The translations under genes were made by a program, and so were the position numbers. 64,000 nt of DNA from Candidatus Latescibacterota bacterium (lineage in GTDB: Bacteria > Latescibacterota > UBA2968 > GCA-2709665), in the NCBI GenBank assembly GCA_965237675.1, contig OZ250150.1, positions 3,040,001 through 3,104,000 on the forward strand, in the 5' to 3' direction. Shown here one piece after another: positions 13,808 to 15,281 of the stretch. How positions within the stretch are numbered: position 1 is the stretch's first letter; the number at the start of each line of letters is the position of its first letter. The notes beneath the pieces are model-generated. The model did no database searches. It saw only the letters and a list, made by a program, of their open reading frames with translations, and had not been told where the DNA came from.

Positions 13808-13874
13808 ATTCTCACGCGAGGTGTCTCATTCCTATTGACATGTTCCGTCGCGCCTTTTGTGGCTACGAAGCAAT

Positions 13875-14255
13875 TCACAGGATTAGCTTTTTTACCTGGA
13901 GCTTTGCGGCGCCGAAGTTGATGAGCATAGCGTCACGATGACCGGATGCGCGGAGATAGCCCAGCGTCTGTGCGATATGTTCCGGTGCCAAAGTCCTGGC
14001 AGCCTTAAGCTCAAGAACAAGGCAGTTTTCCACGAACAAATCGGCAAAGAAGCTGCCGAGGAGCGTACCGTCTTCATCGCGCACCTGTAGAGGCTTTTGC
14101 TGCTCGACAGAAAGGCCAATCTTACTCAAACGGTGGGCCATTCCATTCTCATACACCTTCTCCAGGTGACCATTCCGAAGATGGGTATGCAATTCAAAAG
14201 CCGTTTGCCGAACCTTATCACACAAATCTCGAACGCGCTGGTCGTCTCTTTTCAC
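13875..14255 (-). CDS. GxxExxY family protein (PD-(D/E)XK nuclease-like)
   Basis: GHLEKVY, ADLFVENCLVLELKA and AQTLGYL...LINFG motifs; GTG start at 14255. Confidence 0.9.
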   Translation of the reverse strand: MKRDDQRVRDLCDKVRQTAFELHTHLRNGHLEKVYENGMAHRLSKIGLSVEQQKPLQVRDEDGTLLGSFFADLFVENCLVLELKAARTLAPEHIAQTLGYLRASGHRDAMLINFGAAKLQVKKLIL

Positions 14256-15281
14256 TTTATAACCGATCAATTGGCCACAAAAAGCACAAAAGGCACCGAA
14301 AGTATAGAAGCCAAACGGCAGGTGCCGAAACAACGGGACTCAACATCCATTATCGGTGTCGGCGGTGGCCCATCATCAGTTTGGCCACAAAAAGCACAAA
14401 AGGTACAGAAATTAAATGGCTGAACAGCGGGTGTAGAATCGACTCCATTCTGTAGTCACTGCGGTGTTTTCCTAGGCTATACACCCTGTAACTGAATAGT
14501 TCCTTTTTGTGTTTTTGTGCCTTTTGTGGCCATTGCCTTTAAGCCGCGAACTGGCTGAACGGGAAAATAACCACAAAAAGCACAGAAGGCACAGAAATTA
14601 GAGAACTGAACGGCAGGTGTAGAACCGCCTCGATTCCCTAGCTAATACGGTGTTTTTCTAGGCCATTTGCCGGTTTTCGGGGTCGTTTCCTTTTGTGTTT
14701 TTGTGCCTTTTGTGGCCATTGATTTTATGCAGCAAACTGGTTCAGCGGGACAAAAAGCACAGAAGGCACAGAGGGTGCAGAATAGAAACGACATGTGTAG
14801 CAACGACTGCACTCGGTATCGACTATTGGTGTCATTCGCGGCTATTCAGCAGTTCACGGAATAGGCCTTTTTGCCTTTTGTGTTTTTGTGCCTTTTGTGG
14901 CCATTGTCTTTACACGGCAAACTGATTGAGCGGGACGACAACCACAAAAAGCACAGAAGGCACAGAAATTAAGGAGCTGAACGGCAGGTGTCGAATCGAC
15001 TCGATTCTGTAGTTATTACGCTGTTTTTCTTGGCTATACAGCCAGTAACTGGTTAATTCTTTTTTTTGTGTTTTTGTGCCTTTTGTGGCAATTGTTTTTA
15101 CGCGGCAAACTGGTTGAGCGGGATAATAACCACAAAAAGCACAGAACGCACAGAAGGTATAGAAGCTAAACGGCATGTGTAGAAACGACGGGATTCAGTA
15201 TCGACTATTGGTGTCATTCGTGGCTATTCATCCTTTCACAGAATAAGTATTTTTCTCTTGTGCCTTTTGTGGCAATCGATT

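Follow-up and report, generated by a model that had tools for sequence, protein, structure and literature searches.

The window, i.e., the whole stretch of 64,000 nucleotides analysed here, includes the type I restriction genes hsdR and hsdM, and the gap between these two genes holds a small GxxExxY gene along with an array of periodic, inverted arms. The arm family of the window is termed K and has the core CCACAAAARGCACA. The features of the region are (window positions):

13875..14255, minus strand: GxxExxY gene (TIGR04256 / PF13366), 126 aa, assigned by profile searches, conserved columns and a structure model
14275..14301: K-family arm of three 9-nt periods, immediately 5' of the GxxExxY gene; T-rich on the gene strand, the inverse of the usual layout
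13848..13863: short degenerate K-family arm immediately 3' of the GxxExxY gene, also present in an IS-less allele
14302..14384: truncated unit, a loop fragment without a reverse arm
14385-14530, 14571-14716, 14748-14901, 14942-15089 and 15130-15273: five arm-loop-arm hairpin units (144-154 nt) on the hsdR side
11629-11775, 11816-11962 and 12003-12147: three hairpin units on the hsdM side
12188-12214: extra forward arm on the hsdM side
11776-11815, 11963-12002, 12148-12187, 14531-14570, 14717-14747, 14902-14941 and 15090-15129, minus strand: seven copies of the hsdR 3' end
12250..13847, plus strand: IS3-family element (NF033516, 184 bits vs. a cut-off of 160), with a 99.6% copy elsewhere
15282..17846, minus strand: hsdR, type I restriction subunit, the upstream host gene, assigned by profiles
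9914..11608, minus strand: hsdM, N6 methylase, the downstream host gene; the 5' part of a longer frame that is interrupted downstream

The GxxExxY open reading frame (ORF) is 381 bp in length, begins with GTG and is encoded on the strand of hsdR. The hsdR-hsdM gap includes eight complete arm-loop-arm units (144-154 nt) and two partial units. In the array, seven of the eight reverse-to-forward slots consist of a repeated hsdR 3' end, 40 nt long in six cases and 31 nt in one, and the eighth slot, of 411 nt, contains the GxxExxY gene. The preliminary description had placed a compact 381-bp gene in hsdR orientation between arms ending at 13863 and starting at 14275, with an hsdR tail as the usual content of a slot; the coordinates, profiles and slot counts agree. 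One array unit folds arm-to-arm with a z of -2.2. Rfam provides no match near the gathering score, and the six miRNA-model matches of 25-29 bits (vs. 95) are interpreted as hairpin noise.

The short arm at 13848-13863 abuts the IS3-family element. In an IS-less contig of a separate study, position 12242 is joined to 13869 and the short downstream arm is already there; thus, the arm is the older feature and the IS3-family element is, judging from this joint, a late insertion into the array that lies outside the cassette. Positions 13818-14532 are identical in contigs of two runs from different studies, one of which is possibly the source of the window. A joint of gene excision is not seen in the contigs of 4 of 22 runs, where rare variants get lost. 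A contig joint of 15089 to 13879 was considered as a circle; with 14 letters between and a 31-nt side, it is read as the layout of another strain.

Additional features flank the two host genes. An IS1182-like transposase (8211-9776, under the family cut-off) is found at 8076-9913 between hsdM and hsdS-like frames, and a fused M-S gene looks split, since homologous frames are mostly 830-900 aa compared to ~600 aa in the window. Arms of a second GxxExxY-linked family (D) are noted without a gene at 7204-7244, 10336-10376 and 17839-17972, one of them in frame within hsdM. Three 93-nt repeats at 18269-18547 are similar to the arm family of a GxxExxY paralog at C1:1588892. A small ORF at 17940-18215, presumably HicB-like, has no profile match and has an N-terminus near-identical to that of an ORF in the hsdR-hsdM gap of genome G015. 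A mixed repeat of a D arm and a K arm (L262; G000 C1:3038175-3038260) is located ~1.8 kb ahead of the window start.

The window protein belongs to the GxxExxY / PDDEXK_3 family by both profile (113 bits to TIGR04256, cut-off 35; 100.6 bits to PF13366, cut-off 22) and motif. The family is listed in a table of PMC3424549 with the function 'Unknown' and with multiple transfers. Among 100 aligned homologues, residues G29, E32, Y35, D72, E82, Y100 and N113 are invariant and K84 is at least 90% conserved. Based on the PD-(D/E)XK superfamily motif, the putative active site is composed of E32, D72, E82 and K84, and is intact in the window protein. The structure model that was retained is alignment-based (pLDDT 96; a single-sequence prediction of pLDDT 45 was discarded) and has the restriction-endonuclease-like alpha/beta core that the PD-(D/E)XK superfamily requires. 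PD-(D/E)XK proteins (Cas4, lambda exonuclease, Hjc, DUF820 and SwaI) account for nearly the whole set of structural matches, each modest and none outstanding, with the best at Z 8.2 (rmsd 2.3, 85 aligned) and a best Foldseek E of 1.1e-3. The small PD-(D/E)XK fold named in the preliminary description is consistent with these profiles, invariant residues and model. A single, weak match from a PDB sequence search (E 0.0096) lies outside the catalytic region and was dismissed. Family profiles and conserved columns reveal no HUH motif or catalytic tyrosine, GIY-YIG domain (cd10448) or DDE domain in the window protein.

The K-clade gene is present as a single copy in the window's genome. Its dN/dS to nine homologues is 0.07-0.11, and the changes private to the window copy are 11 synonymous vs. 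3 replacement; the gene is under strong purifying selection. In relatives, the start is an ATG directly after an A-rich arm, with a purine-rich leader. In the window copy, the upstream arm is T-rich and the start codon is GTG, with no obvious purine-rich leader or arm-supplied ATG; thus, it may be weakly expressed at present.

The arms of GxxExxY genes vary with the protein. The 140 loci sampled include 127 genes with the motif, of which 115 are distinct after duplicate removal and 107 have full flanks; the sample is weighted to K-clade genes because the window protein served as query. An inverted repeat scoring at least 14 brackets 64 of these 107 genes. Only 10 of 300 mismatched flank pairs reach this score, as do none of 300 small ORFs drawn from the 1359 of the window's genome (mechanical ORFs, not all real genes). 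K arms, counted within 300 nt of the gene, accompany 18/18 genes at 68% identity or above (window included), 11/27 at 55-67% and 3/70 below 55%, the last three being one shared match within the coding sequence of a neighbour. A label-free test, in which the upstream flank of one gene is compared to the reverse complement of the downstream flank of another (63 proteins, <80% identical), reveals cross-flank matches in 6/762 pairs at <35% protein identity, 14/1782 at 35-45%, 37/628 at 45-55%, 100/538 at 55-65% and 59/196 at 65-80% (Mantel rho 0.36, 0/999 permutations). Enrichment of flanking inverted repeats and their co-variation with protein phylogeny, put forward as a check in the preliminary description, are both found.

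The protein tree places the 16 K-labelled rows in a single 100/98 clade of 28, spanning six phylum labels, and the 6 D-labelled rows in a 99/95 clade of 8; 24 rows of this tree are unlabelled, the motifs are drawn from the same data and the window protein is represented by an 82% relative. The three GxxExxY paralogs of the window's genome, the other two of which are at C1:3995245-3995592 and C1:1588892-1589230, have three distinct arm families. These comparisons show, at the level of sequence, that the 8-11-nt-periodic arms are specific to each GxxExxY clade, and this co-variation could partly reflect linkage or selection on an RNA hairpin. Of 43 clade members, 23 have the gene in the hairpin loop, with the nearest arm A-rich on the upstream side and T-rich on the downstream side; in 10 members the nearest arms are direct, and 2 share the order of the window.

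The hsdR-hsdM junction was compared across 110 loci collected via hsdR or hsdM (including the best 80 of 511 metagenome matches), 91 of which have both genes. The gap is bare (9-10 nt) in 32 of these 91 operons and includes a GxxExxY gene in 9. Other contents are (i) four-helix-bundle genes with their own arms, (ii) KilA-N, Fic and YhcG genes, and (iii) gene-less hairpins (families checked on 7 examples). The four-helix-bundle genes of the gap (TIGR02436, TIGR04258; L215, L246, L241, L212, L176, L222, L225 and others) have periodic arm families of their own. An apparent group II intron is positioned exactly at a D arm in the gap of two operons, full in G008 (L251) and internally deleted in G001 (L252), as read by eye.

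None of the 91 homologous junctions, of which 9 have a GxxExxY gene, contains a duplicated hsdR tail. In the closest relatives, the order is hsdR stop, arm, gene, arm or hairpin, and hsdM, with no tail copies; thus, the array with hsdR tails grew later, around a resident gene. This history is the reverse of that in the preliminary description, in which the gene occupied a cargo slot of the array. The typical unit is an A-rich arm, the gene and a T-rich arm, immediately after the stop codon of the host gene. Judged from the operons compared, the hsdR-hsdM junction is a general cargo site or hotspot, with the tail array as a local expansion. In the hsdR tails, 9 of 16 variant states are synonymous vs. 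25-31% expected (p 0.007-0.03; small numbers, from 6 distinct copies). This synonymous excess suggests that the tail copies stem from different functional hsdR alleles, a hint of repeated exchange. The left junction is common to all seven tail copies, as would be expected either from a single origin followed by exchange or from a cut at fixed distance. Among 147 arm flanks, the tails of the window alone pass the score threshold, and a tail-like spacer of G004 falls under it.

The GxxExxY gene and its host genes have separate histories. The window gene is 90% nt-identical (pS 0.31-0.32) to copies in three genomes of another family (G087, G088 and G039), whose hsdR/hsdM are merely 73-78% identical to those of the window (pS 0.70-0.77). 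The operons that are nearest by hsdR/hsdM (84-89%; G008, G012, G013, G001 and G015) either lack a GxxExxY gene or have a paralog of 40-46% identity flanked by D arms. This discordance shows that the arrival of the window's gene in the hsdR-hsdM gap was independent of both host genes, and the window provides direct sequence evidence of cassette exchange separate from the flanking genes.

A second junction is occupied within the genus. In G004, a K-clade gene (83% aa) with K arms lies at a TPR/dioxygenase-like junction (gene labels by eye). Of 15 same-genus genomes (4 further, more distant loci are not counted), 4 have an empty junction of 138 nt at this site. G004 carries the gene there, G002 retains a 3' remnant with arms, G000 has a K hairpin without a gene, and the remaining genomes have other cargo. 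The G000 hairpin is MITE-free, 2 Mb away and 93% identical to array unit 11629-11775, which implies exchange between the TPR junction and the array. The hairpin was considered as a fresh copy-out; a relic is preferred, since G004 has the gene and G002 a 3' remnant at this site (compared by eye). The distribution of the K-clade gene within the genus is patchy. The cassette moved between sites, one of two origins offered in the preliminary description, is supported by the co-variation of arms and protein clade, by the discordance with hsdR/hsdM and by the occurrence of the same clade at this second junction.

The gene and its arms probably form one selfish cassette, with a nuclease that recognises its own arm and nicks nearby (probability of roughly 0.55). 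The small PD-(D/E)XK protein is proposed to bind the cognate arm, in the form of a hairpin (extruded or single-stranded) or of a periodic duplex, and to nick or cut close to it. The break would be repaired by recombination with arm-bearing DNA; the outcome would be cassette swaps at common junctions, hairpins left without a gene and, by unequal exchange, duplicated tail-plus-hairpin units. The enzyme would, thus, be a local, homing-like trigger of recombination and not a transposase. The clade-specific arms, the discordance with hsdR/hsdM, the second junction, the conserved catalytic residues and the purifying selection argue for this selfish cassette. Counting against it are the KilA-N, Fic and YhcG genes that also occupy the hsdR-hsdM junction, arm counts that are decoupled from the gene (below), the tail duplication unseen in 91 other junctions, the signs of weak expression of the window copy and the excision joint unseen in the contigs of 4 runs. 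The cassette design does not need a nuclease, as four-helix-bundle genes, which do not encode nucleases, have periodic arms of their own at this junction.

The gene-between-arms design of these four-helix-bundle genes is also the starting point of the strongest alternative, an insulated cassette that is passive. The arms would act either on the RNA, as a fold-back or terminator comparable to 23S intervening sequences, or as a binding site for autoregulation, the cassette would move by ordinary homologous recombination at hotspots, the substrate of the nuclease would be elsewhere and the array would be plain slippage. The position of the arm right after the host stop codon, where it supplies the start region in relatives, is as expected of such a cassette, as is a tail duplication confined to the window (0/91 other junctions). 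Base-pairing, however, needs no set sequence, yet proteins of the clade that are 55-65% identical keep the 9-nt family in different phyla and beside different neighbours. Moreover, the arm layouts AA, TT and TA account for 12 of 43 clade members, and the RNA fold spanning the window gene is not better than shuffles (z -0.87). A passive cassette is a serious but rather unlikely explanation.

A domesticated host function is improbable. By analogy to SsnA, the protein might cut incoming arm-bearing ssDNA, and so tune uptake or aid type I restriction. The strong signal of purifying selection, the upstream hsdR in 14 of the GxxExxY loci examined (window included) and the precedent of SsnA, as outlined in PMC11893778, are compatible with such a role. 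A resident host function is at odds with a junction that is empty in 32/91 operons and has the GxxExxY gene in only 9, with paralogs that replace one another at this junction and with the occurrence of the family at unrelated junctions, patchy in the genus.

The 40 exact arms on the main contig are distributed among the array (15), MITEs (22), the TPR hairpin (2) and a mixed D/K repeat (1). Two MITE types are noted. The first is a TTAA family with inverted ends and 12 copies, one incomplete (G000 C1:38976-39200 and 11 more sites; ends read by eye). Copies of 377-430 bp carry a K hairpin, a deletion form of about 220 bp carries one K arm, and in two copies ~70 nt of MITE sequence is repeated ahead of the hairpin. 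The second, with four copies, combines a pair of 42-bp mini-elements and has duplications of 8-9 bp at its outer ends (G000 C1:135746-136031, 768218-768466, 2050430-2050920 and 4710597-4710879), the cargo of which is a circularly permuted array unit in three copies and a shortened unit in one, with an hsdR tail in all four. These tail-tagged copies were considered as proof of GxxExxY-driven copy-out and rejected, as all four are flanked by 42-bp mini-MITE ends (by eye; one degenerate). An autonomous transposase was found for neither MITE in a scan that covered MITE ends only. As read from these flanks, the long-range spread of arms in the window's genome is the work of unrelated MITEs, and genome-wide arm spread should not be credited to the nuclease unless MITEs are excluded.

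Across 53 genomes of the order, exact arms number 76 in G004 and 121 in G034, both with the gene, 96, 47 and 38 in G022, G013 and G009, where the K-clade gene was not found, and 2, 2 and 6 in the gene carriers G087, G088 and G039. The arm count does not follow the presence of the gene; gene loss after expansion is possible. Most of the arms read in G034 (21 of 121) and G022 (20 of 96) stand alone, within mosaics that include other repeats. In these loci (L282-L326), the single K arms are strand-biased within mosaic intergenic repeats, often beside GTAG-type palindromes. The autonomous RAYT-like form suggested in the preliminary description, in which the protein itself copies arm pairs genome-wide, could account for arms dispersed in many relatives (including the gene carriers G004 and G034) and for the MITE-free hairpin 2 Mb away, but is very improbable: 22 of 25 arms outside the array belong to MITEs, which have inverted ends and target duplications of their own; at the site of the MITE-free hairpin, relatives retain the gene or part of it; gene-less genomes are equally rich in arms; and the modelled fold is of a hydrolytic PD-(D/E)XK nuclease type with no HUH or tyrosine strand-transfer motif.

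The selfish cassette may be extended, tentatively and with doubt as to the whole, to GxxExxY at large as a family of ~125-aa sequence-specific hairpin/cruciform nickases with orthogonal arm pairs and homing-like cassette swapping at operon junctions. The tail-plus-hairpin stack of the window would then record a succession of cuts that were each repaired with an incoming hsdR allele. GxxExxY proteins are widespread and without known function, and the clade-specific arms name a candidate substrate for each member. If the enzymes cut their own arms, they would be a PD-(D/E)XK parallel to Ssn and RAYT and a source of very small orthogonal nucleases, and would explain a common class of 9-nt-periodic intergenic repeats.

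The GxxExxY cassette shares features with several known systems. It resembles the 23S rRNA intervening-sequence (IVS) and four-helix-bundle cassettes (PF05635, TIGR02436, TIGR04258) in having a small gene enclosed by inverted arms. The 23S IVS is excised by RNase III. Unlike the 23S IVS and its PF05635 protein, the window cassette is not in an rRNA gene but between hsdR and hsdM, and its protein is of PF13366. Free-standing homing endonuclease genes are intergenic nuclease genes inherited independently of the flanking genes, as is GxxExxY here, and the PD-(D/E)XK-type I-Bth0305I domain is among the structure matches (Z 5.2). Unlike these genes, the GxxExxY cassette is associated with no intron or intein, and the element that co-varies with the protein is an arm carried by the cassette itself; a homing-type target was not identified in the empty allele. 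A DDE insertion sequence has a DDE transposase, fixed terminal inverted repeats and a target duplication; the window protein lacks the DDE domain, and the cassette has variable arm layouts and one copy of its clade in the genome.

The REPIN/RAYT system, as described by Bertels and Rainey (10.1101/2021.07.10.451892), is similar in its enzyme gene flanked by its own repeat family, its gene-less inverted pairs with a variable spacer of ~100 nt and its several paralog-repeat systems per genome. By contrast, RAYT is described there as an HUH/tyrosine transposase that is vertically inherited and stays in place, whereas the GxxExxY gene changes junction and crosses families. Unlike REPINs, the K arms of the window's genome are mostly spread by MITEs; many free inverted pairs dependent on the enzyme are not seen, as arm numbers are independent of the gene and the arms are mostly single in the 41 loci of G034 and G022.

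The Ssn/NTS system (SsnA, GIY-YIG cd10448; Chenal et al. 2025, PMC11893778), as far as presented in that account, is similar in its small single-domain nuclease gene between hairpin-capable repeats, in its many protein-repeat pairs and in its repeats clustered in intergenic mosaics. The repeat-gene-repeat architecture and the co-variation of protein and arm are both found here at the sequence level. The folds differ, PD-(D/E)XK here and GIY-YIG in PMC11893778, and the arms here are runs of 8-11-nt units that would pair with a distant partner, compared to the short self-contained palindromes described there. Thus, the window cassette is a member of neither Ssn/NTS nor RAYT: its protein has neither the GIY-YIG nor the HUH fold, and it does not keep to one site as RAYT does.

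No paper that ties GxxExxY / PDDEXK_3 (TIGR04256, PF13366) to repeats or cassette swapping was found in the openly searchable literature, and PDDEXK and TIGR04256 are absent from the main text of a preprint (10.64898/2026.09.22.753630). The nuclease-plus-arm cassettes, thus, apparently represent a family that is so far undescribed. If the tentative extension to GxxExxY at large is correct, these cassettes would add a third chemistry to the nuclease-repeat systems, after HUH (RAYT) and GIY-YIG (Ssn).
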